A stretch of DNA of 61,495 bases, the filler included, from Stramenopiles sp. TOSAG23-6 (lineage: Eukaryota): NCBI GenBank assembly GCA_900128565.1. It is 11 parts of 11 records of this genome, joined end to end, with 100 filler letters (N's around TTAATTAATTAA, not from the genome) between each part and the next. Parts side by side here need not be neighbours in the genome. Positions count along the whole stretch, not along the records: positions 1 to 5,527 come from LT636890.1; positions 5,628 to 11,150 come from LT636891.1; positions 11,251 to 16,772 come from LT636892.1; positions 16,873 to 22,386 come from LT636893.1; positions 22,487 to 27,983 come from LT636894.1; positions 28,084 to 33,580 come from LT636895.1; positions 33,681 to 39,166 come from LT636896.1; positions 39,267 to 44,751 come from LT636897.1; 3 more parts are not named here. One strand, given 5' to 3'. The notes beneath the pieces are model-generated. The model worked only from the letters and a program-made list of their open reading frames with translations. It searched no databases and had not been told where the DNA came from. The position numbers were made by a program, and so were the translations under genes. Positions within the stretch are counted from its first letter, which is position 1. Each line of letters opens with the position of its first letter. Shown piece by piece: positions 4,886 to 61,495 of this stretch.

Positions 4886-5474
4886 TTAATCCATCCACCA
4901 ATACTGATCTTGGATTTGACTCTCATGATCGCGCCTTGCTCGCCGATGACTTCCACCCTTTCTTAACCGAGCTGATGTATTTTGGAAAAATATTTCAAAA
5001 AAAATTCGTTAGGTACAAAATTTAGTACGAAAAAAAAACTTGAATTTGAAAAAAAATAAAACATACATGAACCACTTTTATACTTTTCACCAGTTAAATT
5101 TGGTCGTTGAAGCAAAGTTTTCGTTCCCAATTTTTTATTTATGACATCTAATTGAATGCCCGCACCAGATCCAAATGAATACACCAATACAACACCATTT
5201 TCATGACCACAAACTATCGAATATGTACATATATTGTGAAAAGTATTTTGTGAAAAAAAAGATTGTTAGATACGAAATGTTTTGAAAAAAAATGTAGGTA
5301 ACAATTTTTCTAGGAAAAAAAAAACGTACTAACTTTCATACAAGTGATGGGAGTGTTACCGGCATTTTTCAGTTCGCGTAAACAACGTCCCATTTTTGAA
5401 AATGCACGCGAATCAAGATCAATTTCCCAGATCTTGATTGTTCCATCAGACCCAGCACTCACAATTTTATGAGC
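4886..5474 (-). CDS. WD40-repeat protein, 3' part, 3 exons
   Basis: Spliced: AHKIVSAGSDGTIKIWEI..PITCMKVSTYSIVCGHENGVVLVYSF..QYWWMD*. Confidence 0.75.
4975..5066 (-). mobile_element. Introner-like intron, GT-AT
   Basis: AT|GTATGT..TACCTAAC..CCAAAATACAT|; removal keeps frame (an AG 3 nt downstream is also in frame). Confidence 0.8.
5229..5329 (-). mobile_element. Introner-like intron, GT-AT (diverged)
   Basis: TA|GTACGT..TATCTAAC..CACAATATAT|; gives MKVSTYSIVCG. Confidence 0.7.
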
Positions 5475-5527
5475 ATGTATTTTGGAAAAATATTTCAAAA
5501 AAAATCTAAAAAAATTTGTTAGGTACA
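5475..5527 (-). mobile_element. Introner 3' half at contig end (AT acceptor)
   Basis: TACCTAAC..CCAAAATACAT| followed by the WD40 exon. Confidence 0.75.
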
Positions 5528-5627
5528 NNNNNNNNNNNNNNNNNNNNNNNNNNNNNNNNNNNNNNNNNNNNTTAATTAATTAANNNNNNNNNNNNNNNNN
5601 NNNNNNNNNNNNNNNNNNNNNNNNNNN
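5528..5627. other. Artificial contig spacer (44 N + TTAATTAATTAA + 44 N); recurs at 11195, 16817, 22431, 28028, 33625, 39211, 44796, 50381, 55963
   Basis: Identical six-frame-stop linker inside N runs every ~5.6 kb. Confidence 0.97.
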
Positions 5628-8038
5628 ATCAAATCAATTTGAAACTCGTTGTCGTCAGACAGATAAATGCGAAGCGTATGTACGTTTTATTTTTTTTCAA
5701 ATTCGATTTTTTTTTTCATACGAAATTTTGTACCTAACAAATTTTACTTTTTTTTTTTGAAATATTTTTTCAAAATACATCCTTGTCATCCAGTAATTGT
5801 CATTAACTATAATCAAATTCAATTAAAACTTGAAAATCTTTCAAAACGACCGATGACAACAGACATTATAGTAAAAAACATAAATTTGAGTGTTAATGTT
5901 GATCATTTAATAGACGTTATCCGAGATATTATGTTGGAAAGGAATTTTCGTAAAAAAGCGATTTTTATAAATGGATTTGATAATGATGGCACATCGATTG
6001 GTTGTTCTACTGCGCAAAATGTTTCACTGGCAAACAAAAAAAACAAAAAAAACAAAAAAAGACGATTTTCAAATTTCATTTTGAAAGAAAGAAAAAGACG
6101 AATTTCAAATAAATCTTTGAATACATCTTCGAATACATGTAAAACAAGCTCTTTTATAGCAAAAGAAAAGTTATCATCTCGAATGAAAGGTTCTATTCGA
6201 AACCTNGAGTTGCGTGAAATTGCTATTCGAAGTGTTTTTGGNGGTTTTGTGACNCATGTCATAGAATTTATGAAACAAAGTATTGTACGTACTTTAAAAT
6301 TTCAACTTTCTTGTTTGTCTAATTCAAGAATTTGTAAACCTTCTGAAATTATATTAAATAACGTCTGGTTTGAAATGCCACAGGATCTATCCATTCCATG
6401 TGTGTTTTATTTTTTTCAATTTCGGATTTATGTTTTTTTTCATACGAAATTTTGTACCTAACGATTTTTTTCATGATTTCGTGTTTTTTTTTCACATTCC
6501 ATGGTACGAAAGTTTGTTTTTTTTAAGACATGATGAAACTCTTTTTCATTTTAAACCTACAATTGANTCTCAAGGTGGTGGTGGTGAANCAGAAATGATG
6601 ATTGAGATAGGTCATCGACGTGATGGTGTCTGGAGTTCGGGTTGGGAGGGATATCTACCTAACGATTTGGATAGAAAACTTTTGCCATTTAAACTATTTT
6701 TTACAAAACTTTTGATTGAGATTCCTTCAAATNATGTACAAGGGAATCTAGAAGTGCTAAATGATACAAAACCAAATAGAAATTCGTCGAATAATGTATG
6801 TTTTATTTTTTTTTTTTACAAAAAATCGAATTTATTTTTTTGGTTTTTATAAAAATTTTGTACCTAACAAATTTTAGTTTTTTTTTTTTTAATATTTTTC
6901 CAAAATGCATGTATTGAATAATGACACAAGCAATCATTTGAATTCTACAAAATTTAATTGTTTGGACAGTACAAACGTCAATGACGTCAACCTACCTAGC
7001 CCTAACCCTAACATCAATGACGTCAATGACACACATTTTAGTTTGTCACTGGCTCCAAATTCTTCCAATACAATGAATGATGGAATACTTGGTAAAATAT
7101 TTCGCTTGGCTGGATTGGAAATGTTTGTTTTATTTTTTTTCAAATTCGATTTCTTTTTTTATAAAAATTTTGTACCTAACAAATTTAAGTTTTTTTTTTA
7201 AAGATTTTTCCAAAATACATGGATGGTATAGGATATAATCTTAGATTAATCGGGTCGACACAGTTACCGATTAAATTTTGTATTGATAGGTTTCGCATTG
7301 AAATTNTTACTGATTTATTATGGCTTNTGTTACAAAAANANCAATTGAAGGATATCAATCGGATGAAAGACATTGCATTTCAAGCGGCTCTAGATACAAA
7401 TGAAAAAGATCCCATTGCTACTGCTGATAGTTCTATATCGCTACCATGTTTGTTTTATTTTTTTTCAATTTTTTTTTTGTAATTTTTTTTTCATACGAAA
7501 TTTTGTACCTAACAAATTTTAGTTTTTTTTTTCAAATATTTTTCCGAAATACATTATTAAGTATGAATTGGTTCTTAGGTCTAAAAGAATTATGTACGTT
7601 TTCATTTCAATGTAGAATGTTTTTTTAGTACGAAAGTTTNTACNTAACGTTTTTTTTTTTGAAATATTTTTTCATANTCCATGGAAGACANTGGAACCCA
7701 TCATTGAAGTACAAGCATATATATCTTTGACAAATGAAAAAGATGGGCTACGCTTTTGCATGGGTCGCAAATCTCAAAAAACATCAAAGGATANTACCTC
7801 CCAAAATCAATGTGAAAATCAATGTAAAAATACATTTAATCATTTATGCAAAGAAAAGACAATCAACAATGATGTAAAATCTAAAGTTNANCCACTGATT
7901 CAAATTCAATTTAAATTTTTCATTCAAGAAGTCATCGACATTTTNTGTGAACTTGATAAAATTACATCTTCAATGACTGTAGAAAAAGGACGTGAAGCTG
8001 AGCGGGTAGCTATTTTGAAGCAGAAGAAAAATAAATAA
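5628..8038 (+). CDS. Hypothetical protein, 5'-partial, interrupted by six GT-AT introns
   Basis: Removing 5680-5780, 6400-6502, 6796-6910, 7123-7220, 7448-7554 and 7594-7682 yields one continuous frame ending ..ILKQKKNK*. Confidence 0.75.
5680..5780 (+). mobile_element. Introner-like intron, GT-AT
   Basis: TAT|GTACGT..TACCTAAC..CAAAATACAT|CCT; the nearest downstream AG creates a TAA stop. Confidence 0.85.
6400..6502 (+). mobile_element. Introner-like intron, GT-AT
   Basis: CCAT|GTGTGT..TACCTAAC..ACATTCCAT|GG gives IPWYE. Confidence 0.75.
6796..6910 (+). mobile_element. Introner-like intron, GT-AT
   Basis: AAT|GTATGT..TACCTAAC..CAAAATGCAT|GTA, in frame. Confidence 0.8.
7123..7220 (+). mobile_element. 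Introner-like intron, GT-AT
   Basis: AT|GTTTGT..TACCTAAC..CAAAATACAT|G, in frame. Confidence 0.8.
7448..7554 (+). mobile_element. Introner-like intron, GT-AT
   Basis: CCAT|GTTTGT..TACCTAAC..GAAATACAT|TA, in frame. Confidence 0.8.
7594..7682 (+). mobile_element. Introner-like intron, GT-AT
   Basis: TTAT|GTACGT..TACNTAAC..TCCAT|GG gives KELWKT. Confidence 0.75.
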
Positions 8039-8100
8039 ATAAATAAATGATGAAAAATTATTTTTTTTTTTTAATTCATTTTTTTTGTTGAGAAATACTT

Positions 8101-9618
8101 TCAACTCGTATAAGCAAATTGAAATTCTGCAACTAATGCACAATGATCGCTTGTTTTATAGGATGGAAATTTTATTTCTCGTTTACAGCCAATGCAAATA
8201 GGATACTTGATTCTTCGATGACGTTGATTTCGAGGAATATTTCGTCTTTTTGTACCAAATTCTGTAGGTAACGAACGACCGAAACGATAAAGTATATGGT
8301 CTAATTGACTTTCCAGTTTTTCTTTCTTTTTTCCCCCATTCGAAATAATTCTATGCCAAGTAGGTGCAGCATCAGAATGTACATTTGCTAATGTTGGTGT
8401 TGGTGAAGACACNTCGAAATGTCGTAAAGTTTATATTGTGAAAAAATATTTTTTTTTTTGGTGTACAAAAATTCGTTAGGTACAAAATTTTCATACAAAA
8501 AATAAAATTCATGAGGAAAACGTACTTGAACTATAAATGTTCTTTGTGAGTTTGGACAAACACTTTGAAACCGTAACGCTGGATTTTCACAATTTAAATT
8601 TGGTTTTATTTTTCTGATAGGGTTGATCAAAGGATCAGTTTCTGAGCTGTTTAAGTCTCCTAGGATTACTATATCCTCATATAATCTTGATTTCCGTTGT
8701 ACTGTATTTTNGNAAAATANTTCNAAAAAAAANCCCTNAAANTTCNTTAGGTACAAAATTTCCTATAAAACAAATCGAATTTGAAAAAAAATAAAACATA
8801 CATGCAGCTCTAACAATTCGGGCTTGAGCCATCCGCTTATAATGAGAAAAATCATTTCCTCGCAAAGACTTTAAGTGTAGAGCTACAATATTGAGTGGTC
8901 TACCTCCAGTAGCCTTTGGGAAACAACGGGCAATATACCCTCGCCTCAATTTTAGCTGGAATGTTTTTAATTTTCTATTTCCATGAGATGAAAATTCAAT
9001 TTTTTTATTTCGTGTTTTGTTTCNTGTTGCGAAGGACTTCTTATGATGTCTTTTACATGTAGTTGTTTTAATTCGTCCCGCAGAAGCTTTCGCAGCAGAT
9101 GCCACGGCTGCCCAACTTTTATTATTTTTTTGAATTGGATAAGGTTTTGANGGATCAACCATTGTTACCGTCAAATCTTCATCTACAGTATCAAATCTAG
9201 TGTACGAAACTAATGGTTTAGAATGATGCTTCAAAAGAGCACTTTTTCTGTAGTATAGAGCAAGGTTGACACCACCATTTCCTTTATTACGTCTCTGTGA
9301 GTCGTGCCATACAAAACCAAATTTATCTGAATGATGCCGATTCAACTCTTTAAAAACAAGTTCCGCAGCACGTCTATCACAAACTTCAACGAGAGAGATT
9401 ATATCAGCACACAATCGAACTAAATGTTTGGCAACTAAATGAATTCGTGCAAGACCGCCATCGACTCTGCTATCCAACATTTCTACGTTCCAAGTAACTA
9501 CTCGAAGACATTGCTTATTTTTTTCTAGAATCTCATTTTTATCCAAAGATTTTTTGTTATATGCTGCTCGATGTTTTTCTCGCCTGCGTTCAGCTCGAGC
9601 AACTTTTTTAGACGGCAT
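8101..9618 (-). CDS. Endonuclease/exonuclease/phosphatase (EEP) family protein, 3 exons
   Basis: Motifs VVTWNVE, ADIISLVEV, LHLKS, VILGDLN, LDHIL, SDHCAL. Confidence 0.85.
8431..8525 (-). mobile_element. Introner-like intron, probable GT-AA
   Basis: CAA|GTACGT..TACCTAAC..CACAATATAA|ACT restores the frame to LDHIL/SDH; an in-frame CAT 12 nt downstream is an alternative. Confidence 0.65.
8702..8801 (-). mobile_element. Introner-like intron, GT-AG
   Basis: GCAT|GTATGT..AAAATACAG|TA, in frame to GDLN. Confidence 0.85.
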
Positions 9619-9928
9619 TCTATACTAATTGAATAAAACTATATAATTCTGGTTTACTTGTGAATTTGTAAGTTCAGCACAAACGGTTTTTATCATTTTT
9701 ATTGTTTACAAAGAGATGAAAGAGTGCAAATTTTCTAATGGTTCAATTCAAAGTCGAAGTGATTTTTGATGTGGCCGTTAAATCCAGTTTGCCGTTGTGT
9801 CGGCGGTTGATTTTCAAATTTCAAATTTTCAAAATTTCAAAATTTCGAATTTTCAAAAGCGCGCTGACGTAAATAACAAGAAAAAAACGATTAAAAAAAG
9901 CTCATCAATTCTATCTTCTGAATTAGAA

Positions 9929-10051
9929 ATGGTGGATTGGATAGGCGTTGGAATTATACTTGCCTTTGGAGCCGCAGCCCTCGGTATATACATTTGTGGG
10001 CAAATGTATGATACCACACAAAAAATTCCAGAGCAACAGCAATTGATTTGA
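9929..10051 (+). CDS. Small 40-aa single-TM protein
   Basis: MVDWIGVGIILAFGAAALGIYICG..; divergent from the EEP gene. Confidence 0.4.
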   Translation: MVDWIGVGIILAFGAAALGIYICGQMYDTTQKIPEQQQLI

Positions 10052-10106
10052 AAGAAAAATTTTACTTATTGGGCTCTGCTGCTGCTGCTGCTGCTGACTG
10101 CTGACC

Positions 10107-10928
10107 ATGCAGGGGGGTGCGGCGATGTGGGTCGATGACCCGATGTCGTGCCTGAATCTGGGCAACGATTTCGGCGAATCTGAACGTCGTCCGGGATTTG
10201 GGTTGTGCTCTGCCGACGGCTCCCTTTTTGTCTCAGGCGCGGTAGAGGGGGGGGTCAAAAGCATTAAACCGGCACCCGGCATCAAGTACATGAGTGATCG
10301 CCAAGGAAGAGTTCGCCCAGCAGGCCCAGGGGATGGTGGAATAGAGCCAGGCTCGCGTGTGTGGGCTAAAAGCGGCTCACGCTCGTCACCATACCCTGGA
10401 CAAATGGGCACCGCAATCCGTTATCGTGCGGCGAAGCTGCGCTGGGAGATCCGCTGGGACGATGGCTCACAGAGTCTCTATGATCCTTTTAACCTGCGTA
10501 ATATCGTGACGAGCCCCTTCAAGTACCGTGCTAGCGAGTTGGATGCCACGGTTGCACTCAGACGGCGTGCTATCAAAGAGGCGGCTACCACTCGGTGGTG
10601 TCCAGGCCAGTCCAGATTTATCCTGACTGACAAAAAGGGCTTCTATTATGATGAGGATTTCGGTCGAGAGGGCACCATGATGGACGCCCCTGTCGACATC
10701 GAGGTGACCCTGCCCCCTGCGGTAGCCGCTGCTACGACGCACATGGAATTCAAGAATTCCAACGTGCTACTCCTCAAGGCGGAGCAAGGACATATGTTGG
10801 CTACGGTGACCAAAAACAAATTTTTGAACGATTTCGACAAGTGGGACTGTTTTAAAACCGGCGGATTTGTCTGTGAAGTACTTGCGGAGCGCGGCGTCAA
10901 AATGTTTCGCGCTGCTATATTTCTGTAG
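10107..10928 (+). CDS. Hypothetical protein in GC-rich island (possible Tudor/SH3-like segment)
   Basis: 273-aa ORF; GSRVWAK..GTAIRY..WEIRWDDGSQ; composition unlike the flanks. Confidence 0.55.
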   Translation: MQGGAAMWVDDPMSCLNLGNDFGESERRPGFGLCSADGSLFVSGAVEGGVKSIKPAPGIKYMSDRQGRVRPAGPGDGGIEPGSRVWAKSGSRSSPYPGQMGTAIRYRAAKLRWEIRWDDGSQSLYDPFNLRNIVTSPFKYRASELDATVALRRRAIKEAATTRWCPGQSRFILTDKKGFYYDEDFGREGTMMDAPVDIEVTLPPAVAAATTHMEFKNSNVLLLKAEQGHMLATVTKNKFLNDFDKWDCFKTGGFVCEVLAERGVKMFRAAIFL

Positions 10929-11250
10929 GCTTTCCGGGCTTTGAGCGCTGCGCTGCTGGTTGAGCGCTCCGCTGGTGAGGATGGAGACGAAGACGAGGGC
11001 GCAAGCAATTCAAATTGCAAAGATTTCGTTTTTTTTGAAGATTGAGATAAAGAATTTTTGGAAAAATGGTAGGGGGTCGAACTGTCGAACTGGTACATGC
11101 ACTAAAAATCACTTTTTCGAAAAAAGAAAAATCGCATTATAATTTATTTGNNNNNNNNNNNNNNNNNNNNNNNNNNNNNNNNNNNNNNNNNNNNTTAATT
11201 AATTAANNNNNNNNNNNNNNNNNNNNNNNNNNNNNNNNNNNNNNNNNNNN

Positions 11251-12199
11251 TTAATGATCGCACAGAAAATATTTTCAAAACGGAGGCAATCGATGATAAA
11301 ACTGGTCTTGGTCTTTGGCCTGCGTCAGTAGTTTTATCTCACTGGTTAGTCGATATTCGTCGTAAATTTAAAAATTCAACCATTGCGGAGCTTGGTGCAG
11401 GTTGTGGTCTTGCTGGAATCGTCGCTGCTCGGTATACAAAGGCCTCACATGTTGTCATAACAGATCGTTATGACGTTACTGTGGCTAACTTGCGACACAA
11501 TGTGGATGTAAATTGTAACGAAGCGGCAAAAGGAAAAGGTGCAAGAACGGACGTTAAATCTGTTGACTGGGCTGATGATTCGGCTTGGGGAGATTGGGGT
11601 GGAAAAGGTAAGCGTTTTGATGCTGTGATTGGGGCAGATTTAGTGTATCACAAAGATGTTATCTCTATATTTCTCAGTACAATTAATTCAATCTTAAAAC
11701 CTGGAGGATCATTTTATTATGTCAGTCAGGAAAATCGTGGTGGATTGATACAATTATTAGAACAAGCCTGTACGTTTTTATTTCAATTTTTTTTCGTACG
11801 TAATTTTGTACCTAAGGATTTAATTTGTTTTTTCATTCAAAACCAAATCCAAACATTGTGTCTATATTTTTCCGTGTTGTACTATTGTACATATAACAAT
11901 AAAACAATAAAACATTCAAAAAAGAAAAAAAATCTAATCATTTTGAATAATTTGAAATATTCTTTTACGAAACATCAAGTTTTGGCTTACAACTTTTGAA
12001 TGGTCGTGAAGCTCCTCATAGATATCGAAGCAATCCTTTAGTGGGTCGAACAAATCTGGAATGTGATTTATTCTTATCTGGCCTATTACCAGATTCTGGT
12101 ACGACTCTGAATGCCCAAACTGGAACAAATGGAACGAACCCTGGAGGAGATAAAGAGAAAGTTAATTTTCGTCTCTTTGAGTTTAAAAAAGAAAATTAA
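11251..12199 (+). CDS. Methyltransf_16 (METTL21/EEF2KMT-like) lysine methyltransferase, 5'-partial
   Basis: DKTGLGLWPASVVL, ELGAGCGLAG, VITD, VDW, VIGADLVY; intron 11770-11975. Confidence 0.85.
11770..11975 (+). mobile_element. Extended introner-derived intron, GT-AT
   Basis: CT|GTACGT..TACCTAAG..CTAAT..GAAACAT|CA gives EQASSFGLQ; the nearest AG is out of frame. Confidence 0.7.
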
Positions 12200-12307
12200 A
12201 GTGTATAATGTATGCCAATTTTGATTTGTATTATTCAATTGTTGTGTATTTCAAAAAAAATAATTTTTACATCTCTACACATAAAACTAGAAAAGAGAGA
12301 TAANACC

Positions 12308-15076
12308 TCAATTACAGAGCATACTTTGGAATGATCCTTGCAAAGACTTTGCTAAACCACTAACTTTTGATTTCACTGTAGTGACACATTTAGATCCTTG
12401 AAATCGAAGCTCAACTAGTGCAATAGCCTCATTAACCATAACTATAGAAAAATAAGCAACATCTAAATTTTGAACGTTTCGATTTGTTATAAAGTGAACA
12501 TTAAAAGATTCAAGATTCGAACTAACTGCGTCCACATTTGTTGATTTCAATGAGTTTAATTCAAATGAAAATTCATTTGGTTGTTCAATAGCTTTCCATT
12601 CTGCCAAAAACTTCTGTTTACACTTATTATCAGTTTCAGCAAGTTTTTCTTTTGTAAAGAGTGCGCACATATCAAAAGGTATATAAAAAAATGCAACACT
12701 GCCAGATAAATTGTTTTTAATGGCTGCTTGTTGACCTCGGGGATCATATGCTGATGTCTTTTGGCTACTAACAACACTGAGNGGAATCGTTTGTGTAGGA
12801 GATGTCTCGCCAGGGTTTAAAGAACCTACGTCAATTGTCACTGAATTTGGTTTTAAACCGAAAAAATTCTTATTAAATTGAAGAGCTAATTTACTTATTT
12901 TGTTTGATTGGGAGGTGTTTGTTACCTGTAATTGAAGTGAAAGTAAATCATCCACACGAGTAAAAGCTGCACGCATGACAAATTCATTGGAGGTATTTCC
13001 GTTCCACTTCAAAGCAATATCGTTTAGCTGAACTGACTTCTGTGACTGATTGCCCATCAAATCATCACTCCCACCAAACAAATCATCAATGAAAGAGTCA
13101 CCACCGTCAGTTTTAGATTTTACAGGATCATTATTAGACTCTTCTAAGTCTAAACCTAATAAATCAATTCCATTCACATCATCGCCATGAGAATTCTGAG
13201 TTGCTTCTTCCTCGTCTGATGAATCAGACGACTCATCCGAATCATTCGAGTCATCTGAAGAATCAGAGAAATCGTCTCCTCCAAGTCCTGCATTCTTCTT
13301 GATAGTAACAAAAGCATTGGGTGGTTTATGATAAATAGCAGCAAGAGTTGACATATGAGACAATAATTCATCCAGGAGATCCGGAGAAAGTTCACATGTA
13401 TCATCTGCAATTACAGGTTTGTCAGCCAATACTACCGCTTTAGCCGCTTTTGCATCCGTCGAAAGCAAACGCCAATAAATATATCCTCGATCACGCAAAT
13501 CCGGATCATCACTTTTTTCTGTTGCAAGATTAAGGATGCTTTGTACCATATCTTGGGTCTCACTAGGCTTCTTTAAAAACAATTTAACCACAGCAGTTAA
13601 TAATTGTAATTGAACTTGCACAGGTTCATCTTCAAATGTATCCATGAAATGCTCTAATAATTCATCAGCGTTGTCAATCCTTTCCGCATATTCTCCAATG
13701 ATCCAAACCATTGCTGCCTTTGCTTCAGGCTCATCAAGCGAAACTAAATTTTCACATAAAGTAGCTATGATACTTTCGTAACGATTTGGATATTTACGAA
13801 AAATATCCTTAATCACTATTATCGCTTCTTGTACTACATAATTGACCTTCGTCTGAATGAGATCTAATAAAACATTTATACATCTCTCAGCAGCACGTTC
13901 AAGTTTGATTGCACAACGTCCAATCGCTCGAACAGATTTTCGTACAAAATCCACATCGACTTCACGAGAGTATTCCTTCAACTCCATCAAAACTTGCTCA
14001 ACATTTCTCTCACAAGTCAACTTTATAATTATTTCCAATTTTTCCATTTTGACATAAATAGGATCATCATACTTACAAAAGAATACTTTAATTTCTTTCG
14101 TGAGCATGGTCGGTAATTTCTGAACTACAAGGTTGATATTTCGAAGTGCAACGTATTGAATTTCAGGAAACTCGCCATGAGAATGTGACATTAAAGAGAC
14201 TAACGGCGGTGCCATTTTCTTTATAAGATGAGCTTCAGACTCTTTGCAGCCTAGAAAAGGCATATATCTCATAATGACTTTAATTGCAGATAATACCACT
14301 GCAGAATTGGCATGTTTTAAGCGTGGCACAACTCTTTCAACAATACTCTCCGCTTCCCTTTCGTCCTTAGGTGAGTATCCGGCTAGGGCATCTAAGATAA
14401 AAACCTGTCCCCACTCAGAACATTCATTCAAAGCAGCCAATAACTTTTGGAGAACCGATGTTGTAACGCGTAAAACATCAGTACCATGACAATCTTGGAT
14501 TTCTGCAAGTGAAGCTACACTGTTCGCGACAACCATTGGATTTGAATCTGAAATAAGTTCCTGGAGCATCTTGATGAAACCTTGCACTTCTACAAGTTCG
14601 GGGGAAATATCATACAACTTTGCAACGCATACAGCAGCTGTCTTGCGCACATATGGATCTTCGTCCTTCAAGGCTTGGCGGAGAGGTTTACATAAATATT
14701 CTGTAATTTTATCCACACGAATACAGCCCATTGTTCGTACAGCTAAAGCACGAATTAGTGCGTTTGGATCGCGGGTGTCGCGTTGAAATGTGTTTACTGC
14801 AAGAATTGCAAGATCAGGATTTGACTTTGCATAATTCATTACATACAAGTATACCAGTTTCTTAAGCTCAAGATCATCTGTCTGCATACAGTTAAGGACA
14901 ACAGTGAACAAACTTGACACGTCTTTTCCAACAGTCATGGCAGCAATTACTTTTTTGACTGCCTCCTTTTGGATATCCTGTTTCCCAGACACTAAGTCCT
15001 TTTTCAATTCTGCGATTTCACCTTTTTTGGTAGTCATGAAGAACTTACCACCACCATTTCTTCTAGACTTTGACAT
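12308..15076 (-). CDS. AP1B1: AP-1/AP-2 complex beta subunit (beta adaptin), intronless
   Basis: [64 protein letters not shown], ear domain. Confidence 0.96.
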
Positions 15077-15380
15077 TGCTTTCTTATTCAATGTGAAACT
15101 TCGCGAATCTAGAAGCGACTGCAAACAAAAGCTAGAGGTCTTCAGAGAATGGAGCCGTGTTTCGACGTGTTTCGACTCGAGATTTAATTTAGAAATTTTA
15201 GATTCGCAAAACAAAACACGAAAAAATACAAAACCGACAACATCGACGCATCAATTGAACTTGAAAAACTAACGATTCAAGTATTACAAAAACAAAAAGA
15301 GAGAGTTCTTCGAGGAGAGAAACTTTTGGTGTAAAATTCCATTAAACACGTATAAACGCTAAAAGCTATACTTTAGAAAA

Positions 15381-15850
15381 ATGCCACATGATAATATCAC
15401 ATCACGTATCGAGTATTCAGAAAAGTACAACGACGAACATTATGAATATCGGTAAGTTGCCCTTCCCCCATGGAAATGAATACCTTTATAATATCCTTTC
15501 AGAAAGTTATATCCCACCATATCACTCANNNNNNNNNNNNNNNNNNNNNNNNNNNNNNNNNNNNNNNNNNNNNNNNNNNNNNNNNNNNNNNNNNNNNNNN
15601 NNNNNNNNNNNNNNNNNNNNNNNNNNNNNNNNNNNNNNNNNNNNNNNNNNNNNNNNNNNNNNNNNNNNNNNNNNNNNNNNNNNNNNNNNNCCCAGAACCA
15701 CACATCCTCCTCTTTCGAAGACCTCTTGGGACAGATCCAGCCACTGGAAAGGTCGATAGCAAAGCAGCAGAAGCAGCTAAGAAACAATATAGGTCCAAGT
15801 ACCTCGGAGAGAGTGAAAACACAAACGGTGGAAACGCGAACGCTAAATAA
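15381..15850 (+). CDS. CKS1: Cyclin-dependent kinase regulatory subunit; intron with GTAAGT donor at 15452, middle in gap
   Basis: IEYSEKYNDEHYEYR | ..PEPHILLFRRPLGTDP. Confidence 0.9.
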
Positions 15851-16020
15851 AATGAGTGTGTTTTTTTATTATTTTTTAAACATTGTTGTGACGCAGTAAC
15901 AAGCAATATATTTTATGAAAGCTCTATATTCCTTTTAGACAATATATACTTAATATTATATAAGAGTATTCTGTTGAAACGGATAATTTATTCAATAATA
16001 AAAACATCATTTCACCCAAA

Positions 16021-16100
16021 TATACATTTTTTTTTTCACATTTTTTTTTTTGATACGAAATTTCGTACCTAACGATTTTTTTTTTAAATTTTCACAATTT
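16021..16100 (+). mobile_element. Decayed introner copy in intergenic/3' region
   Basis: GATACGAAATTTCGTACCTAACGATTTTT..TTTTCACAAT, with no intact donor or acceptor. Confidence 0.6.
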
Positions 16101-16213
16101 TGGTTAAGATCTTGAAGGATTATCCAATATACATTTGCATGAAATGTACACAACGAACTAACCCTAACCCTATTAACGAGGTCTTTGCAGTAGAACTTCA
16201 TTCTTTACGATAT

Positions 16214-50708: not shown

Positions 50709-53656
50709 ATGAATAGAGAAAATCCTGTTACTAAGCCAGTGAACACTGTGCATCGCAAGTTAAAAGCAAAGCTCCACCGGGAGGACATGTTGCATGCTGA
50801 ACGTTGGATCGAAGAAGAAAATAAAAAACTCAAAGTGGAAGTTCAGGCATTTGCATCACATGAGTTAGGATTATCTTCCAATATCCCTAAATCTACTCGA
50901 CATAACAGGTTTGATTCAGAAGAGACAGTTATATCAGATCCAATAAGAAGTCAAGAATCAACTGTGTATAAGAAAACGAATTCAACATTACAAAAAGTTG
51001 GTATACAAAATGGTATACAAAATATAGAAAAAATACTTACATCTGAATACCAAAGTGGAGAATGGAATGGAATCAAACGCACCGACTTAGATGATCTTGT
51101 AGAGAGACTTGATTCCACCGGTTGTACGTTTTCACAATTAATTTCAAATTTAATTTCTTTTCGTACGGAATTTTGTACCTAACGATTTTTTTTTACTAAA
51201 ACAATATTTTTCACAATACATGTAATACCGCGCATCGTGGCCAACTAGAAGATTCTATTATTGCTGACTTACATATGCCCCTTTCAACAAAACATTGTAG
51301 AGCTATAGCGAATCATTTTGCACTACCAGGACATCATGCAGACGCCGACGAATGCATCAACGTTTGGGATTTTTCGGATTGGTGCACTCCATGGATTTCA
51401 AGAAAAGCTGCATCTCTTAACGCTTCAGATAATGAAGAAGTATATGATACTATTGGAAACCAAGACGAGGCAGAAAACTTTTATAGAAATGTTTTATTTT
51501 CTTCCTTAATTGAGCATAGTTTATACGAACAGTTTTCTATATTAGCTTCAGATGAGTCACCCGATGGGAGTATAGGTCAATATTATGGAAATACGAAAAA
51601 AAGAATAAGTATGAAATCATTGATAAAACTTATAGATATGTCTGGTTTATCTACACAAGGGGGGTTAGGTTCAGCAGATGCAGTTCGTTCTTGGTGTGAT
51701 AAAGAATGTTTATCTCCTTCTGCACTTCTAACATTTCCACAGTGCTCGAAGTGTGCAGTAGATTTGATGCAGCAACTACTGAAAGATGTTTATGGGAAAG
51801 ATAAAGAAGCTACACATCATTTAGATGATATAGTGTATTTAAGATCAAGTACTTCTCATGGAAATAATAGATCTAAATTGATTACAGATATAGCAGGACC
51901 AATGCTTAATGCATTACGTGTATCATGGATCGATTCGTCGTCTTTCATAGCCAAAGATGAAGGTATTCTTTTACAGCATCGCGCTCTTGAAAAATCGAAA
52001 GTTTTGATGTATGTAATTGATGGCTCAACGCGTGGAATTGACGTAATGCTTGAAGCAGCTGCACATATTGCAAAAAGACGTTCGATGGTGCTAATTATTG
52101 GACAAATACCTGAAAGAAATAGTGACATTCAAAATACACAAAGTGTCGTCGAAAAAATAGGGAAGCGAAGTCTGTATTTGCGATGCAGTGCTCAAGAAAG
52201 AGCTGAATTGAATCATTCTCGATCATTTCTTTCTGCGCAAGCTCAATTAGCAGGCATTAAAGTGTTTCAACCATCCGGAATTAAATTAGCTGTTCATGAA
52301 TGCATTCGTTTGTTAGATATTGAGAGACACAATACGAAAATAAATATAAACGATAGCGGCGAGAGAAAAAGTGCCGATACATATAAAGACAGAGAACTAC
52401 CGTCTTTCCATAGTGCTGGCCTTGGATCACTCTCCGTATTATGCAAAAAACCTCCTGAATATAAGTCCGACGATGAAGATAAGAACAATATAGGATCACT
52501 CACTAAATGGCAAAGTGATAGACATAAACGTGTACAAAAGTCGATGATAATTGAACGTGCAGAACGAAAGTATAGCGAAAGGAGGATGCGCGATTTAACA
52601 CAAAAACAAAGAGATGTTATAAAATTACAAGAAGAGAACGAACGACTATTGTCTGAACTTGCCTCATTTGATGACGAGTTTTTCCAAGAGGTTGACGACT
52701 TAAAATCTAGGTACAAACGATGCTTAAAAAGAAATAAGCTTGTAAAAACCGAACTAGTGAAAGCACAAAAGGAAGCAGATCGCCAGTATGATTTAGACAG
52801 ACGATTATGGAGACATCTCGAAACTGCATTTCAACAATCTGATTCGGAACTTTCAGGGTTTTTACCTGTAAGTAAATTCCGTTCTATTCTTCAAGGAAAA
52901 CTTGGCCTCTCTCGCGATGAGACTAGTGAAATAGTGGTTTCTCTACCAAGTAATCATTTCGGTCATGTGAGTTACTTAGCTTTTACTGACTTGAGACGGC
53001 TAATATGTCTTGGCACAGAGAATGCAAGAAAGGGACATGGAAACGACGAAACATCAAGCGAAGAAGTAGAGAATGAGTCTGCTCAATTACCCGAAGTAGA
53101 AGAAGTATTAGAGAAATTGGAAGATGATTATAATCGTAAGATTTGGGCTGGTTTATCACAATTACAATTAGAACGTGCTGCAGGTGAAATTAGTGGAAAT
53201 CGTCATAGAACAAAACAAAAAAAACGGAAGCCGTCATCTCAAGTACCAGCTGCTGTCCTCAGGAGAGGGATTCGTTTACTTTGTGAATCTGGTGATCTTC
53301 CATTAACGTCTATAGATTGTGATAGTTTAGTAGCAGCACTACGAGTGCGAGGAGATAGAAGGGTTGGCTGGGTAGATGTCCGAAGATTCTTTACAATGTT
53401 TGAAAGCTTCCCTAGAAGAAATGATGTAGTGGAGAAGCAAAAGAGAAATAATAATTCGAGAAAGTCTTCTACAAGTAAGCCAAATTCCAAGAAAGAACCT
53501 ACAAATATTGAAAGAAAGCATAAACGAAATAAAAATAAGCGTTCTAAAACAGTAAGAAACAAAAAGCAGAATAGAAAAGGTGATCAGAATGAGGAAGAAG
53601 TAGGAATGCTCACAGGAATTTTATCACGGTTGTCTAGCGATGATGAGTCTTCTTAG
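50709..53656 (+). CDS. EF-hand-like / coiled-coil protein, 2 exons
   Basis: Intron 51124-51221 fuses ORFs 50709 and 51275; AFQQSDSELSGFLPVSKFRSIL; ELASFDDEFFQEVDDLK. Confidence 0.7.
51124..51221 (+). mobile_element. Introner-like intron, GT-AT
   Basis: GGTT|GTACGT..TACCTAAC..CACAATACAT|GT, in frame. Confidence 0.85.
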
Positions 53657-53738
53657 CATAAGATTGAAAAGAGACATTTTGCGTTTAGACAAAATTTGTT
53701 TGTTTTTTTGTGTATAATTTATAATATATTAAATTGTC

Positions 53739-55067
53739 TTACATTTCATTTGCTTTCGCGATAATATTATTGATAAAATCATACGAATCTTTCTTTTTGG
53801 TAGTAATAGAAATTCCAGATCTATTTGTAGACTTTTCATGAGGTATTAAATTTTCATCATTTTCAGTTTCATCAGAAATGTTACTTTTGTTACTAACAGG
53901 TGCTCCAAACATAGATGATATGGAAACTTGCTTCTTTTTTTTCTTTGAATCTTTCGCATCTAATTTCTTTTCTTTTTGATCTTCTTTTGCAATCTGCTTA
54001 TCACGCCAAGCTTCATATTCGGCCAGTTTTTGCTTCCTCTTCAACCGTCGGGCCGCAGCCTCATCACCCGGAACGATACTCATCTCACTATCGGAGTCGA
54101 CATCATACGCGGATGGATCGCCTTCTTCATCCAAGGTAACACCAGGACAAAACCCTGACACTTTATTTTTTTCTGACTTTTGTAATGTTTGATTTTTTTT
54201 TTTTTTTTTTTTTTTTGGGTAAAAATTTTTTTTNNNNNNNNNNNNNNNNNNNNNNNNNNNNNNNNNNNNNNNNNNNNNNNNNNNNNNNNNNNNNNNNNTT
54301 CGTACGAAAAAAAAATCGATTTTTTTGTTAAAAAAAAAAAATAAAACATACATCATCCAATGCTTTACGTTTTCGTTTCGTCTTGCGCACACCAATTTCA
54401 GCATGACAAACATCTAGCATATGCGTACAAACTTTAGTAAACGTCTTTGGTTCCACATGAACTAAACTAACTAACTTTTGTTTATCTACGCGAACTTTTC
54501 GTTTTTGTGTACATGTATTGTGAAAAAATATTTTTTTTGTTCTAAAACAAAAAAAAATCGTTAGGTAAGGAATTTCGTACGAAAACAAAATAAGATTGAA
54601 ATTCAGCATGAAAACGTACATGTGAAGAATATCGCAGCTGCATACACAGGGTTGGAAAAGTTAGTTCTAATACGTTGGGCTGCGGGCATATCTTGTTGCA
54701 CTCGGCGTTTATATGCCAAAAATGTCTTTTCAATGAACGTAACGTGAGACATTGCACTGAACTTTATTGCGAGTTCACGAATGGAGTATCCCGATGCTTT
54801 GATACGAAGAATATTACTGATTTTTAGAAACGTTTGAGTATACACTTTTTTGTTTGCACCAGATCGACGCTGCAACTCATCTTTATCAAGCTGAGCATCA
54901 CATAGACGACACGCAAGCTCAAGGCAAATAGCGCTTCTGCAAATTGCCCCTTTACCCAGTGAACGGCACGAAATGCTCGCACGGCGGTCTAACTCCAAAG
55001 CTTTTGCTAGAACTTTCGGACAACGCATATTCATTCGACGATGTAAGAATCGAATAGTTTCTGACAT
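53739..55067 (-). CDS. ORC6: Origin recognition complex subunit 6
   Basis: ICRSAICLELAC, IRELAIKF, FSNPVYAAAIFFTC|TQKRKVRVDK, EYEAWRDK; the last junction lies in a gap and is unresolved. Confidence 0.8.
54185..54351 (-). mobile_element. Introner(s) spanning an N gap
   Basis: GAT|GTATGT donor at 54351; 3' boundary uncertain. Confidence 0.55.
54513..54619 (-). mobile_element. Introner-like intron, GT-AT
   Basis: ACAT|GTACGT..TACCTAAC..CACAATACAT|GT, in frame. Confidence 0.88.
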
Positions 55068-55368
55068 ATTGCGCCTTCTAATATGAAACTTCAACCGCAA
55101 TGAAAGGAAAAAAAATTGGTGCTTTTTTTGGTTTCTCTTTTAGGAGTTTTGACCAAGAGCAACTTTTCATCTCCAAGAATTTCCAAAATCTGTAAATCAA
55201 ATCGAAACCCTAACCCTACGTAATATAATATAGTCAGCAGTATTTTGTCCAATGTCCAGTACTATTAACTTCATTCATCAACATCATCAAAACAAATCTG
55301 CAGGTCTTACCTCTTAAGTAGTCAATAGAACTTCTGCAAATTTTATCTTTTTTGTAAAGATCAAGGAT

Positions 55369-55866
55369 ATGAAAGAATCTAAAGCGGAGGCCAAGGCAAG
55401 GAAAAAAGCAGAACGTCTTGCTAAGCGGAAATTACGTGCTGCTCAAAAGTTTGCAAGAGAAAATCCAAATGCTGAAGACGAACTTTCATTTGACAAAGAT
55501 GCAGATATTTCTGCAGTTCAACAAGGTGACGCTGGTGCACTCACTGCAGAGCAGATCCGCGTAGCGACTGTCCGAGCTGTTACAGGATCTCTTGCATCAA
55601 AGGAAGGTGAGCGAGATCTCAAGTTTATAAATTTTTCCTTACAAGTCGGAGGTAACCATTTACTTACTGACTGCAACCTCGAATTGAATCAAGGCTGTCG
55701 TTACGGAATAATTGGGAAAAATGGTTCTGGAAAGTCTAATATTCTATCATCGTTAGCACAACGTGATATACCCGTACCAGAACATATGGATATATATCAT
55801 TTGCATGAAGAAGCTCCTGCAACGGACCAAACTGGTGTTGAAGCAGTCATATCTCATGTTGTAGAT
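55369..55866 (+). CDS. ABCF2: ABC-F family ATPase (ABCF2-like), first exon
   Basis: RAVTGSLAS..DLKFINFSL..LELNQGCRYGIIGKNGSGKS..IPVPEHMDIYHL. Confidence 0.82.
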
Positions 55867-55918
55867 GTATGTTTTATTTTTTTTCAAATTCGAATTTTTT
55901 TTCGTACGAAATTTTGTA
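55867..55918 (+). mobile_element. Introner 5' half at contig end
   Basis: GAT|GTATGTTTTATTTTTTTCAAATTCG..CGTACGAAATTTTGTA. Confidence 0.75.
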
Positions 55919-57152: not shown

Positions 57153-57158
57153 AAAACC

Positions 57159-59093
57159 CTAATCCAGCTTAATGTTAACCTCACTTGGACAAACTAAATC
57201 ATCCCAGCCGTACCAAAGACCTAATAATACTATTATATGTACTACAGTCAAAATAAGCGAGGATGAGAAAGTAGATGTGTCTGTAAACCACGGATTCCAA
57301 CATAATTCTATTAGTAGAAAAAGCACAATTCGAAAAATATCTGGAAATTTACAACACCATAATAAAAATATATTGTAAAAAAATATTTCATTTTTTTTTG
57401 TTAGGTACAAAATTTACTATGAAATTTACGAAAAAAAAAAAATGATGATTTCAAAAACGTACATGGAATTGTATGGAAATACCAAACATAAAATTGAAAA
57501 TGGAGAGATCGAGCACAACATGTATTTTGGAAAAATATTTCAAAAAAACATCGTTAGGTACAAATTTTCGTAGGAAAAATAAATTCGAGATTGAAAAAAA
57601 AATAAAACATACATATACCTATAAAATTTGACGTAAATAAAATTGCTATTAATTGACTTGAGCTAAATATTCGTTTTTGTTGAATTATGTTTGTGTTTTC
57701 TATATTTTCTGTCCTTTTCGACATTGCATATTTCCATAATCTACAAATGCCACTTGTATAAGATGAAATCAATGTTTTATTTGACATTTTTGAGTTTCGT
57801 TTTTTTTCTTGATTTATAAAATTTGGTATTTTGCAACACCATCGATAATTCGCAAAACAATACCAAAATAGTATATTAAGGAAGAATAAAAATAATGCAA
57901 ATAGTTTTGAAGTAAATACTCCGCTACAATCGACTAGTTTAGTTTGCATTTCTATTGGTAAAGTTGTACAAGGAATAAATTTAAAATTGACGCTCCAATA
58001 ATGCTTGAAGACACGTGTCAAATTGAACGATTGGGTGAGATATGCCCATGGCGCCACAAGTAAAAATGGAAATGCACAAATAATTTGAATAAAACCACAT
58101 AGGAGTATATGTACTACAGTTTTTTTTAAGCCGAGTTCAGAGAGAAGTATCACAAAGTATTGTGAAAAATATTTCAAAAATTTGATTATTTTTGTTAGGT
58201 ACGAAATTTTCTATGAAAAACAAAATTGAAATTTATGATGAAAACATACAATAACCCCGGGGCAAAGAAAATAATGTTCATGTTTTGTGAATTAAATATG
58301 TTTCAAGTTTTAAAATTCGTTAGGACTTGGTATGACACTTTTGGATTTTCTAAAAATTTGTGAGGTACAAAATTTTCATAGTAAAAAAGTTGATGATGAA
58401 AAAGTACATTTTGATACTAAAAGCAAAACTGAATAAGATACACCCGTAGCTAAATCGATTATATAGAAAACAAAGAATCGCACAATATAGAAACATCATA
58501 GCCGGTCCATCATTGAATAAACGTAAAACGAAGATCGAATGTACACGCTTTGAAATGGATAATAAAATCAATAATATTGGGTGAAATCTCCGAGGTGCAG
58601 CTTTTGCGTAAATTATGGTTACAATAAAAAGAGTAAATAGATAGAATACCATAAAGATACATTGAGCTCGACCAATATCATTTCCACCATCCGTTAAAGT
58701 CCATAAAATAGAATATATTGCTACAAACCCGCCCGGATACACCAATGGACCTGTTCCACCTTTGAGGTTGGAGTAATTAAAGTCATTGCGAAGAAGAGGA
58801 CCTTCAACTTCCTGCATATAAGCTTTCCAGTCTATTTCTGTATAAGAAATTCGTTGGACAATCAACACATTAAGAGCTAAATCTAAAAGTATCAATACAC
58901 AAGCAACAATGATAAATGAAGAAAAGGTACTTTCGACACTGTGTAATATTGTACCAACTACTGGAAGGTTGAAAACGCTTCTAGGGATTAAGGGTAACAA
59001 TCGTTTTTGTTTCTTTCGCAGTCTATCCTTTTTCGATTTTACCAATATCCGGTCAATCTTGGGTTGATCTAAAGAAGCTATATTTTTATTCAT
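57159..59093 (-). CDS. ALG3: Dol-P-Man:Man5GlcNAc2-PP-Dol alpha-1,3-mannosyltransferase, 5 exons
   Basis: [91 protein letters not shown]. Confidence 0.96.
57368..57462 (-). mobile_element. Introner-like intron, GT-AT
   Basis: CCAT|GTACGT..TACAATATAT|TT gives HTIPFLLW. Confidence 0.88.
57520..57612 (-). mobile_element. Introner-like intron, GT-AT
   Basis: ATAT|GTATGT..CCAAAATACAT|GT gives [12 protein letters not shown]. Confidence 0.92.
58155..58249 (-). mobile_element. Introner-like intron, GT-TT
   Basis: TTATT|GTATGT..TACCTAAC..CACAATACTT|T gives [13 protein letters not shown]. Confidence 0.78.
58280..58407 (-). mobile_element. Introner-like intron, GT-AT
   Basis: AAAAT|GTACTT..TACCTCAC..GTCCTAAC..CACAAAACAT|G gives SIKMNI. 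Confidence 0.85.
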
Positions 59094-60565: not shown

Positions 60566-61131
60566 ATTTATAAGTTTTGTGGCTTTTGTGACAGTCTGTA
60601 TATAGAGAGATATAAAGATATAGAATTCACACAAAGAAAGAAAAGATTCGATTTGTGATGAAAATCACCGGATCGAAAAATCACCGGATCGAATCGAAAA
60701 CAATTTTTTTGGACGATGGGAGAGATTTCGATGATTTCGTGCGGTGGCGACGTCCAAAAAAGGCTCGGTACCCGGGAATCAAAAAAAAAAAGTAACCGAT
60801 GAAAATGAAAAGATCTATTGAAACAATTTGTTTTATATAGGACTAACTTAGCGTCTACTACTACTAGTATACTTTATACTTGTATTAACAATTAACTACT
60901 GTATTTTAATTCAAATAATAAGAACAAAAGAATATTTTTCATTGTGGTCAATATCAATAAGGTAGTACAACAGTTCAAAAGTTAATCTAACATTTATTGT
61001 ACTTTGTGTATACATAGTGTAAAGTTTTCATTTCATTGATTCTTTCATTCAAATTTATCAAATCAGTTTTGAATAACTTTCATGCAGTGAATACGTCTCT
61101 AGTCTAACAAGTGATTCCTCAATTGAGTCTT

Positions 61132-61404
61132 ATGTCTGAATATATATCAACAGCATCAACAACATCAACAGCATCAACAACAATATGTTTACAAAGTTTG
61201 TTGAATGCAACAAAAAAACAAAACAATTTAGTCGTTATTGTTGAAAATGCATTAGCAGAATCAATTCAAAGTGAAAATGGTACAAAAAATGGTACAAACC
61301 TTTCAACAAAAGATTTTTACAGCCGTATTATACAAAAGTATCAAACATTGCATACAAATAATGATTTAGATGAATTAGAAGTGAAACGACGTCTCCAAAC
61401 AGAT
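61132..61404 (+). CDS. Hypothetical protein, first exon
   Basis: MSEYIST..RRLQTD ends at an introner donor. Confidence 0.5.
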
Positions 61405-61495
61405 GTATGTTTTTTTTTTTTTTTTTTGAAAATTTAAATTTTTTTTTTCGTACGAAATTTTGTACCTAACAATTTTTTTAGATTTTTTTTTGAAA
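61405..61495 (+). mobile_element. Introner truncated by window end
   Basis: GAT|GTATGT..CGTACGAAATTTTGTACCTAAC. Confidence 0.8.

Follow-up and report, generated by a model that had tools for sequence, protein, structure and literature searches.

A repeated intron-like element family with mostly GT-AT boundaries in Stramenopiles sp. TOSAG23-6

The element family and its boundaries

We analyzed a 61,495-base stretch of the Stramenopiles sp. TOSAG23-6 genome assembly (GCA_900128565.1), hereafter the window, in which 11 contigs of ~5.5 kb each are joined by spacers of the form N44-TTAATTAATTAA-N44. The window carries a family of short repeated elements that lie in unrelated genes, namely ALG3, ORC6, PRKCSH, a CWF19L1-like gene, genes of the WD40, short-chain dehydrogenase (SDR), ABC and tubulin-tyrosine-ligase (TTL) types, and others. 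The core of the element, TTTTGTACCTAAC, has 46 matches with up to two mismatches, against 3.2 expected from shuffled sequence (largest shuffle, 9), and its 5′ arm, GTAYGTTTTATTTTT, has 27 against 2.7 expected. A sequence-only reading of this DNA had put the family at about 37 distinct copies of ~90–115 nt and had proposed to model it with a profile hidden Markov model. Such a profile, made from 10 seed copies and run over the window with nhmmer, bears out the count: it gives 47 matches, 10 of them in a duplicate contig (44852–50336) and 37 elsewhere, and the latter amount to ~35 separate insertions because two introns yield two matches each. The best pairwise identity between copies is 0.86, with 12 unrelated flanking bases counted in, and two subfamilies are distinguished, GTATGTTTTATTTTTTTTCAAATTCG...CCAAAATACAT and GTACGTTTTC...TTCACAATACAT; members of subfamily b are named as such below.

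In an independent seawater DNA run, the depth summed over the element is ~8,700–17,500, compared with ~7.5 for single-copy flanks; this ~1,000–2,000-fold excess gives a rough indication that similar copies exceed 1,000, summed depth not being a copy number. A 15-nt core pattern has at least 119 loci in metagenomes, with no nhmmer element match among the matches listed, the pattern being too short. Seven contig ends lie inside element copies (5527, 16873, 27983, 33580, 55918, 56019, and 61495), and the repeat is the cause of the fragmentation of the assembly.

Both ends are visible in 23 curated copies. All of them start with GT, and they end in AT (17 copies), AG (4), AA (1), or TT (1), so that the AG end of canonical GT-AG introns is lacking in 19 of the 23. 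This recount is slightly smaller than that of the sequence-only reading (26 two-ended copies, 20/4/1/1) and agrees closely with it. Five further copies, of which only the 5′ end is seen, also begin with GT, which makes 28 of 28 visible 5′ ends, and the four copies cut by contig ends that still show a 3′ end all finish in ACAT. The 5′ hexamer is GTATGT in nine complete copies, GTACGT in eight, and another GTNNGT or GTNNNT sequence in six, GTAYGT thus accounting for 17 of the 23. A GTACCTAAC-like branch motif is present in every complete copy, at 33–48 nt before the end in most, at 33–57 nt in 20 of the 23, and at 33–125 nt overall. The U2-type donor and branch signals first recognized by eye are therefore confirmed, with GTAYGT read from the first base of the element. 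The four GT-AG members terminate at the position homologous to that of the others (ACAG versus ACAT). Every copy with an evaluable flank is in sense orientation to the adjoining long open reading frame (ORF), that is 32 of 32 (23 complete, 5 with the 5′ end only, and 4 with the 3′ end only), as the sequence-only reading had stated for all intragenic copies; a 5′-truncated fragment at 16042–16088 (+) lies outside ORFs and is antisense to both neighboring genes. A search for GTAYGT...CTAAY outside the family, meant to supply baseline introns, returned matches that sit within long ORFs or are without ORF support.

The U12-type introns bear a superficial likeness to the element, which has a GTAT start and CCTAAC where they have RTATCCTT and TCCTTAAC, and they too permit a non-AG end. 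They carry the 5′ sequence RTATCCTT, have a branch site ~10–20 nt from the 3′ end, and tolerate varied 3′ ends, GT-AT included. The element differs from them in both respects: ATCC occurs in none of the 28 5′ ends and the branch motif is at least 33 nt from the 3′ end. It is not a U12-type family. A U12-like branch site considered in the 3′ arm (TTCCAAAAT) was rejected, as it is not conserved in subfamily b.

A feature overlooked in the sequence-only reading is a direct repeat at the boundaries. The two exon bases that precede GT are the same as the two terminal bases of the intron in 17 of the 23 complete copies; when the 3′ ends were permuted against the 5′ flanks (20,000 permutations), the mean was 12.7 agreements (p = 0.00085). 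The only copy ending in AA has AA upstream and the only copy ending in TT has TT upstream, and no repeat signal extends to a third base. The upstream pair is AT in 17 of the 23 complete copies and in 20 of the 28 visible 5′ ends. This pattern suggests that the target site is duplicated over 2 bp and that the duplicate provides the 3′ splice site; the element proper would then be GTATGT...ATAC, followed by an AT derived from the target. No empty site was seen. If the duplicated AT is counted in, the termini ATGTAT...ATACAT form a 6-bp inverted repeat, and a closing helix of 6–8 bp appears in the minimum-energy RNA fold of four of five copies, the overall fold being weak (z from −2.2 to +1.06). 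A Helitron-like insertion between A and T without duplication was also considered and rejected, since the copies with AA or TT at both boundaries are better explained by duplication.

Exact removal in frame and by homology

Deletion of each complete copy fuses the flanking ORFs in frame in 23 cases out of 23, and reading through without removal gives a frameshift or stops in every case. In the following, a slash marks the boundaries of the excised interval. On the second contig, the deletion of six plus-strand copies yields a single ORF of 598 amino acids (5629–8035). Intron 1 of this gene lies at 5680–5780 (AT/GTACGT...ACAT/, 101 nt) and is followed by copies at 6400–6502 (AT/GTGTGT...TCCAT/, 103 nt), where the direct repeat is 8 nt long (CATTCCAT), at 6796–6910 (AT/GTATGT...GCAT/, 115 nt), where an internal in-frame AG would add a TAA stop, at 7123–7220 (AT/GTTTGT...ACAT/, 98 nt), with two internal AGs that are both out of frame, at 7448–7554 (cAT/GTTTGT...ACAT/, 107 nt), and at 7594–7682 (subfamily b, AT/GTACGT...TCCAT/, 89 nt).

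The ALG3 gene, on the minus strand, holds four copies: intron A, diverged, at 58280–58407 (AT/GTACTT...AACAT/, 128 nt), intron B, of subfamily b, at 58155–58249 (TT/GTATGT...ACTT/, 95 nt), which is the GT-TT copy with TT at both boundaries, intron C at 57520–57612 (AT/GTATGT...ACAT/, 93 nt), and intron D, of subfamily b, at 57368–57462 (cAT/GTACGT...ATAT/, 95 nt). Using an ALG3 profile from 89 homologues, we scored all stop-free pairs of donor and acceptor positions within ±15 and ±45 nt (618–904 candidates per intron) with no assumption about dinucleotides. The top-scoring deletions measure exactly 128, 95, 93, and 95 nt; the interval starting with GT is tied for best in three introns and at most 0.2 bits off the best in the fourth, and the full protein obtained after removal scores 500.8 bits. 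In ORC6, the intron at 54513–54619 (−; subfamily b, cAT/GTACGT...ACAT/, 107 nt) passes over a UUUUAG 19 nt past the branch motif. The Pfam model ORC6_2nd matches from 2 to 52 up to the last residue of the upstream exon and from 55 to 86 starting at residue 2 of the downstream exon, so that positions 53–54 are exactly the split codon and one residue. Exact profile continuity is likewise found for the copy at 33216–33307 (−; AT/GTATGT...ACAT/, 92 nt) in the PRKCSH/MRH gene: PRKCSH_1 reaches position 104, five residues remain, and the match restarts at 112 at downstream residue 2. Read from these profiles, six introns are fixed to the base, four in ALG3 and one each in ORC6 and PRKCSH/MRH, and they comprise five GT-AT and one GT-TT.

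The sequence-only reading had held that cutting at AT restores conserved motifs in ALG3, CWF19L1, the MRH protein, ORC6, and OGT. The profiles uphold this for ALG3, ORC6, and PRKCSH/MRH; in the CWF19L1-like gene the evidence consists of frame continuity and the flanking CwfJ_C_1 and CwfJ_C_2 domains. The OGT part is not confirmed: the OGT ORF at 16214–16816 has no complete copy, and the gene beside the copy at 16873–16961 encodes a short-chain dehydrogenase. The further claim that nearby AGs break the frame holds throughout. An AG lies between the branch motif and the AT end in 7 of the 17 AT-type copies, and the use of any of them results in a frameshift or a stop. Two are well placed, the UUUUAG of the ORC6 intron and, in 7123–7220, an AG that follows the branch motif by 24 nt, and whatever machinery removes these two copies must bypass them.

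Copies along the window, host, and sequence reads

The remaining copies along the window are as follows. In the WD40-like gene on the first contig, the minus-strand copies at 4975–5066 (cAT/GTATGT...ACAT/, 92 nt) and 5229–5329 (TA/GTACGT...ATAT/, 101 nt, without direct repeat) join ORFs of 66 and 28 codons and of 66 and 87 codons, respectively; a 3′ half at 5475–5527 (−), cut by the contig end, finishes in ACAT/ and has a 54-codon ORF downstream. The second contig also carries, on the minus strand, the GT-AA copy at 8431–8525 (subfamily b, AA/GTACGT...ATAA/, 95 nt), with AA at both boundaries, and a GT-AG copy at 8702–8801 (AT/GTATGT...ACAG/, 100 nt) that ends at the ACAT-homologous position; their host gene (8803–9624, −) weakly resembles the endonuclease/exonuclease/phosphatase family (E = 7.7e-4). 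The plus-strand copy at 11770–11828 shows its 5′ end only (CT/GTACGT) and lies in a lysine methyltransferase gene downstream of a 173-codon ORF. The SDR gene contains a diverged GT-AG copy at 17029–17145 (−; AC/GTATGT...TATAG/, 117 nt), and the neighboring 16873–16961 (−; AT/GTATGT) is a 5′ part cut by the contig start. Another diverged GT-AG copy is found at 39563–39671 (+; GG/GTAGAT...ACAG/, 109 nt).

Two minus-strand introns contain internal tandem duplications of the element. The copy at 24449–24614 (AT/GTAGGT...ACAG/, 166 nt) has its 40-nt 3′ part duplicated (24461–24545, 2.1 units, 100% identity), and that at 26149–26345 (cAT/GTATGT...ACAT/, 197 nt), in the CWF19L1-like gene, is a 1.9-copy tandem element with an 80-nt unit (26152–26304, 93%). 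Each duplication includes a second branch motif, and the intron ends remain ACAG or ACAT. The CWF19L1-like gene has another copy at 26480–26581 (−; AT/GTATGT...ACAT/, 102 nt), where the junction codon is ATG. On the same strand, tandem partial copies at 26857–27016 end in ACAT/ with a 98-codon ORF downstream, and one or more copies at 27219–27389 start with GC/GTTTGT after a 134-codon ORF and run into an N gap (27064–27218); these nested or tandem partial copies may form one composite intron of more than 500 nt that starts at 27389. They are followed by a complete copy at 27716–27819 (−; cAT/GTACGT...ATAT/, 104 nt) and by a 3′ half ending in ACAT/ at the contig end (27926–27983, −).

At 33529–33575 (−), a profile match marks an internal fragment at a contig end. 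The plus-strand copy at 51124–51221 (subfamily b, TT/GTACGT...ACAT/, 98 nt) joins ORFs of 144 and 810 codons without a direct repeat. An ABC-ATPase gene carries a 5′ part cut by the contig end (55867–55918, +; AT/GTATGT), a TTL-like gene a 3′ part cut by the contig start (56019–56077, +; ending in ACAT/), and the last contig a 5′ part cut by its end (61405–61495, +; AT/GTATGT) downstream of a 99-codon ORF. The duplicate contig repeats eight copies between 44904 and 48025, six on the plus strand (44904–45004, 45624–45726, 46020–46134, 46347–46444, 46672–46778, and 46818–46906) and two on the minus strand (47655–47749 and 47926–48025).

This contig is a second assembly of 5628–11150 (99.9% identity over 4,164 nt and 100% over 1,240 nt), and without it the unique sequence is 54.6 kb. 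The two assemblies differ in an intergenic segment, of 119 nt in one (9792–9910) and 81 nt of unrelated sequence in the other (49016–49096), which could reflect two haplotypes or cells or a chimeric join. The GC content of the window is ~22–44%. An intron-free β-adaptin ORF (12308–15250, −) has environmental proteins as its closest relatives, at most 77–78% identical; one matching cluster includes a protein of the stramenopile Incisomonas marina, and further named matches, at 72–75%, are from a bicosoecid, oomycetes, diatoms, and a haptophyte. A length-windowed search of the protein database returned no same-species proteins, the best matches being 78% for β-adaptin and 55% for ALG3. Judged by these similarities, the host is an uncultured marine protist, probably a heterotrophic stramenopile. 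Scans of the window with Rfam and for transfer RNAs gave no matches and no small nuclear RNA.

Apart from the element, a 24-nt tandem repeat (unit AAAGTATTTTCATCTTTTTTTTGA, 8.3 copies, 97% identity) occupies the contig start at 22487–22685; it is A/T-rich and loosely resembles the 3′ arm of the element on the opposite strand. A coding tandem repeat of 75/225 nt at 18968–19400 corresponds to four DUF4116 repeats (Pfam E = 7e-67) in the ORF 18670–19581 (−). Neighboring ORFs of the same strand overlap in different frames at ~1358–1403 and at ~23500–23520, the latter at an A9 run, with no intron signals; both sites are likely homopolymer sequencing errors or separate genes.

Host DNA is also present in seawater metagenomes, and parts of it in metatranscriptomes, five RNA runs containing 5–13% of the sampled sequence words of the window. 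The comparison with reads covered the contig 50437–55918 and three metatranscriptome runs, with contigs of ~160–540 nt. Contigs of an independent DNA metagenome (run X2) span the exon–element junctions at 54619/54620 (5′) and 51221/51222 (3′); because they cross these junctions, the insertions are real and shared rather than an assembly artefact. Among the joints listed, from RNA or DNA, none skips the ~98 or 107 nt of the two copies of this contig. One RNA contig breaks off at 54616, having run four bases beyond the exon, and those bases, GTAC, are common to the intron and the next exon; this stop fits a branch between spliced and unspliced forms in the assembly graph and proves nothing.

A proposed mechanism and its alternatives

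What the sequence shows is the existence of the family, the orientation of its copies, the precise interval excised, and a direct repeat specific to each copy. From frame, homology, and signals we infer that the copies are spliced from RNA, in the GT register, and that they arose by DNA transposition with a 2-bp duplication. We consider it probable that the family is a non-autonomous mobile element of ~90–115 bp that acts as a ready-made U2-type intron. Read in one direction, the element would open at its first base with a 5′ splice site (GUAUGU or GUACGU), have its branch site (UACCUAAC) in the middle and stretches rich in U as spacers, and close with a conserved right arm that ends in ...AAAAUAC. 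It would insert into DNA in the manner of a miniature inverted-repeat transposable element (MITE), duplicating two target bases, mostly AT and often in the context (C)AT/G. The spliceosome would remove from the transcript the element together with one copy of the duplicated pair, cutting before GU and after the duplicated dinucleotide, 33–48 nt past the branch motif in most copies. The C of the element and the duplicated pair would together make the 3′ site, which would read CAU in about three quarters of the copies, UAA or CUU where the target was another one, and CAG where T has changed to G. Insertions in genes would survive in sense orientation only, being spliceable in no other. The unusual step would be the second catalytic one, in that it would tolerate a final U or A in the intron and disregard AGs upstream of it.

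We put forward more tentatively, as a possibility, that the major spliceosome of this protist lineage picks the 3′ site by position or context rather than by AG, cutting after duplicated AU, AA, or UU and skipping well-formed UUUUAG sites 19–24 nt past the branch point, with yeast-like 5′ and branch sites kept. This would be an AG-independent second step, independent of that of tunicates, and a mobile element would have made most introns of the genome non-canonical. The claim of the sequence-only reading that a U2-type spliceosome takes AU ends is partly supported, by the introner-like family, its sense orientation, its U2-type signals, and the need for its exact removal, mostly ending at AT, if ORFs and conserved domains are to be restored; none of the RNA contigs listed crosses a junction.

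Several observations weigh against the proposed mobile U2-type intron. The direct repeat is absent in 6 of the 23 complete copies (upstream and terminal pairs TA and AT, TT and AT, AT and AG twice, AC and AG, GG and AG), the inverted termini ATGTAT/ATACAT are very short, at 4–6 bp, and no transposase was seen among the window ORFs scanned. The bypassed AGs of the ORC6 intron and of 7123–7220 are sites that a canonical spliceosome would be expected to use, and in model organisms the second step proceeds poorly on introns whose last base is U. Among the RNA contigs listed, which are ~200 nt long, none crosses 51124–51221 or 54513–54619. The element is abundant in the contigs of the RNA runs, with a summed depth of ~100–4,900 compared with 2–12 for exons, and at least one such contig contains a whole copy with different flanks. 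This abundance could be due to unspliced RNA or to DNA carry-over, and the ratios of element to exon depth vary highly between the RNA runs.

The uniform orientation and the strong context in the exons (20 of 28 copies follow AT, and in 13 of 23 the first downstream base is G) would also be expected of spliceosomal GT-AT introns that had spread through RNA, by reverse splicing at (C)AU/G, reverse transcription, and recombination, the upstream AT being a site preference; inverted termini of just 4–6 bp and the lack of a transposase in the ORFs scanned fit such a spread as well. We find it unlikely, as the repeat is copy-specific beyond the consensus, at the permutation p value given above, and a fixed intron would not give the target-dependent AA and TT ends. 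In addition, the truncated copy at 16042–16088 is antisense and outside ORFs, and the tandem duplications at 24461–24545 and 26152–26304 point to DNA-level events.

A different question is where the same excised product begins and ends. Because of the direct repeat in 17 of the 23 copies, the registers GT...AT, TG...CA, and AT...AC give the same messenger RNA (mRNA) in most copies, and these ties appear directly in the ALG3 profile scan; "GT-AT" is a choice of register and not a reading of mRNA. Shifted two bases upstream, the family would consist of AT-AC introns (ATGTATGT...ATAC), U2-type or U12-type, opened by the upstream AT and closed by AC. The two registers are indistinguishable in those 17 copies, 12 of the 23 would read AT-AC, and a first-base A with a last-base C is a known compatible pair of intron ends. 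The ends of the shifted register are far less uniform, with 5′ ends of AT (17), TT (2), TA, AA, AC, and GG, hence six copies that do not open with AT, and 3′ ends of AC (15), AT (5), CC (2), and GC (1), hence eight that do not close with AC. In the GT register, in turn, every copy opens with GT and the 5′ site GUAUGU matches the U2-type consensus perfectly, whereas AUGUAU fits that consensus poorly; the four GT-AG members end at the homologous position; and U12-type features are absent, ATCC being found in none of the 28 5′ ends and the branch motif lying too far from the end, at 33 nt or more. For these reasons the GT register carries by far the greater part of the probability that the introns are spliced, and AT-AC introns seem to us distinctly improbable. 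The copies without repeat at 51124–51221 and 5229–5329 separate the two registers, which predict different mRNAs: ...CCGGTT/GTAATA... (GT) versus ...CCGG/ATGTAATA... (shifted) for the former, and ...AAAGTTA/GTACAT... versus ...AAAGT/ATGTACAT... for the latter, where the junction residue would be S or C depending on the register; the gene there encodes a generic WD40 protein, which does not tell the two apart.

Removal without the spliceosome, either from RNA by end pairing as in euglenids and hemistasiids or from DNA in the manner of ciliate internal eliminated sequences, would account for a direct repeat at both boundaries of which one copy is kept, for the closing helix in four of the five folds, and for the dispensable AG. 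The structured nonconventional introns of hemistasiid diplonemids and euglenids have extensive end pairing, no conserved dinucleotides, and no U2-type signals; in the present family the pairing is limited to the 6–8 bp closing helix of weak folds (z from −2.2 to +1.06), GT is invariant, the 5′ site is a perfect U2-type one, and the branch motif is strong. Ciliate-type eliminated sequences are independent of orientation and absent from somatic DNA, whereas the element is in sense orientation in 32 of 32 copies and independent environmental DNA has it at the same loci, with no element-free joint among those listed for the contig 50437–55918. We know of no nuclear dualism in stramenopiles, to which the nearest named relative belongs, and this counts against excision at the DNA level. 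We regard both forms of spliceosome-free removal as very unlikely. That the AT-ending copies are never removed, as recent insertions inactivating genes or as assembly or amplification artefacts, is hardly credible: the lack of an RNA junction among the contigs listed and the abundance of the element in RNA-run contigs would suit it, but many conserved single-copy genes would be broken at once, ALG3 alone by four copies, in all 23 cases the flanking ORFs are unbroken and remain in phase, and the independent metagenome has the same junctions.

Near-identical introns in unrelated genes, whose exact removal restores an ORF (23/23) or a protein (the six introns fixed by profiles), are the mark of introners, and the proposed mobile intron has close parallels among them. 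According to excerpts of PMC11282704, the introners of Micromonas pusilla (IE1) and Aureococcus are MITE-like DNA transposons that form short, high-copy, near-identical introns in unrelated genes; their inverted termini and target-site duplications are short, and it is the element that brings the 5′ site while the duplication yields the 3′ site. Micromonas IE1 supplies a 5′ GT or GC, and its 3-nt duplication provides the co-opted 3′ AG (excerpts of PMC11282704); here the duplicated bases would be two, mostly AT, with a non-AG end in 19 of 23 copies. Canonical introns account for only 5% of those of the tunicate Fritillaria borealis, where the classes AG/AC and AG/AT prevail and divergent duplicated U2AF subunits are implicated; the three bases that close the intron repeat a YAY triplet found before the 5′ site, and a transposon origin has been proposed (passages of PMC13326754 and PMC11282704). 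The likeness lies in a 3′ site (AC or AT) derived from duplicated exon sequence and in genome-scale AU ends handled by a U2-type spliceosome; the Fritillaria introns differ in mostly starting with AG, in their weak 5′ consensus, and in being documented by RNA (same passages). The present host is a protist, its element has an invariant GT within a yeast-like GTAYGT and a strong CTAAC, and the family is known from DNA sequence. The introners of Amoebophrya, also a marine protist, are repeated non-canonical introns with direct repeats of 3–5 nt over the exon/intron boundaries and terminal inverted repeats of 8–20 nt; they have no dominant boundary dinucleotides, and their authors suggest a mechanism apart from the usual machinery (PMC7789003, in part). 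Here, in contrast, GT-AT dominates and the U2-type signals are strong.

In the literature searched we found no description of a GT-AT-dominated lineage, just as the sequence-only reading was aware of none; the supplementary tables of PMC9860276, PMC12130899, and the Fritillaria and Amoebophrya papers may list unusual ends. Large introner surveys, as described in part of PMC12130899, kept families with unfamiliar splice sites only when these had transcript support, and because of this demand a family in an unannotated assembly could be missed. Both the origin of a 3′ site from a duplication and the large-scale use of AU or AC ends are already known, from Micromonas and Fritillaria. What appears to be new is the combination, in a protist, of invariant canonical 5′ and branch sites with a single dominant GT-AT class within one introner family.

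If RNA confirms the splicing, this organism would be a second independent lineage besides Fritillaria that routinely uses AU 3′ splice sites, and a unicellular one. Since the 5′ and branch sites are canonical, the relaxed step would be confined to the choice of the 3′ site. Gene finders that require AG, and introner surveys tied to annotated introns or discarding unusual splice sites that lack RNA support, would mis-annotate such genomes and miss such families (PMC12130899, in part). The family would offer a natural system for studying how the 3′ end is recognized in the second step of splicing and how transposon duplications shape the repertoire of splice sites.

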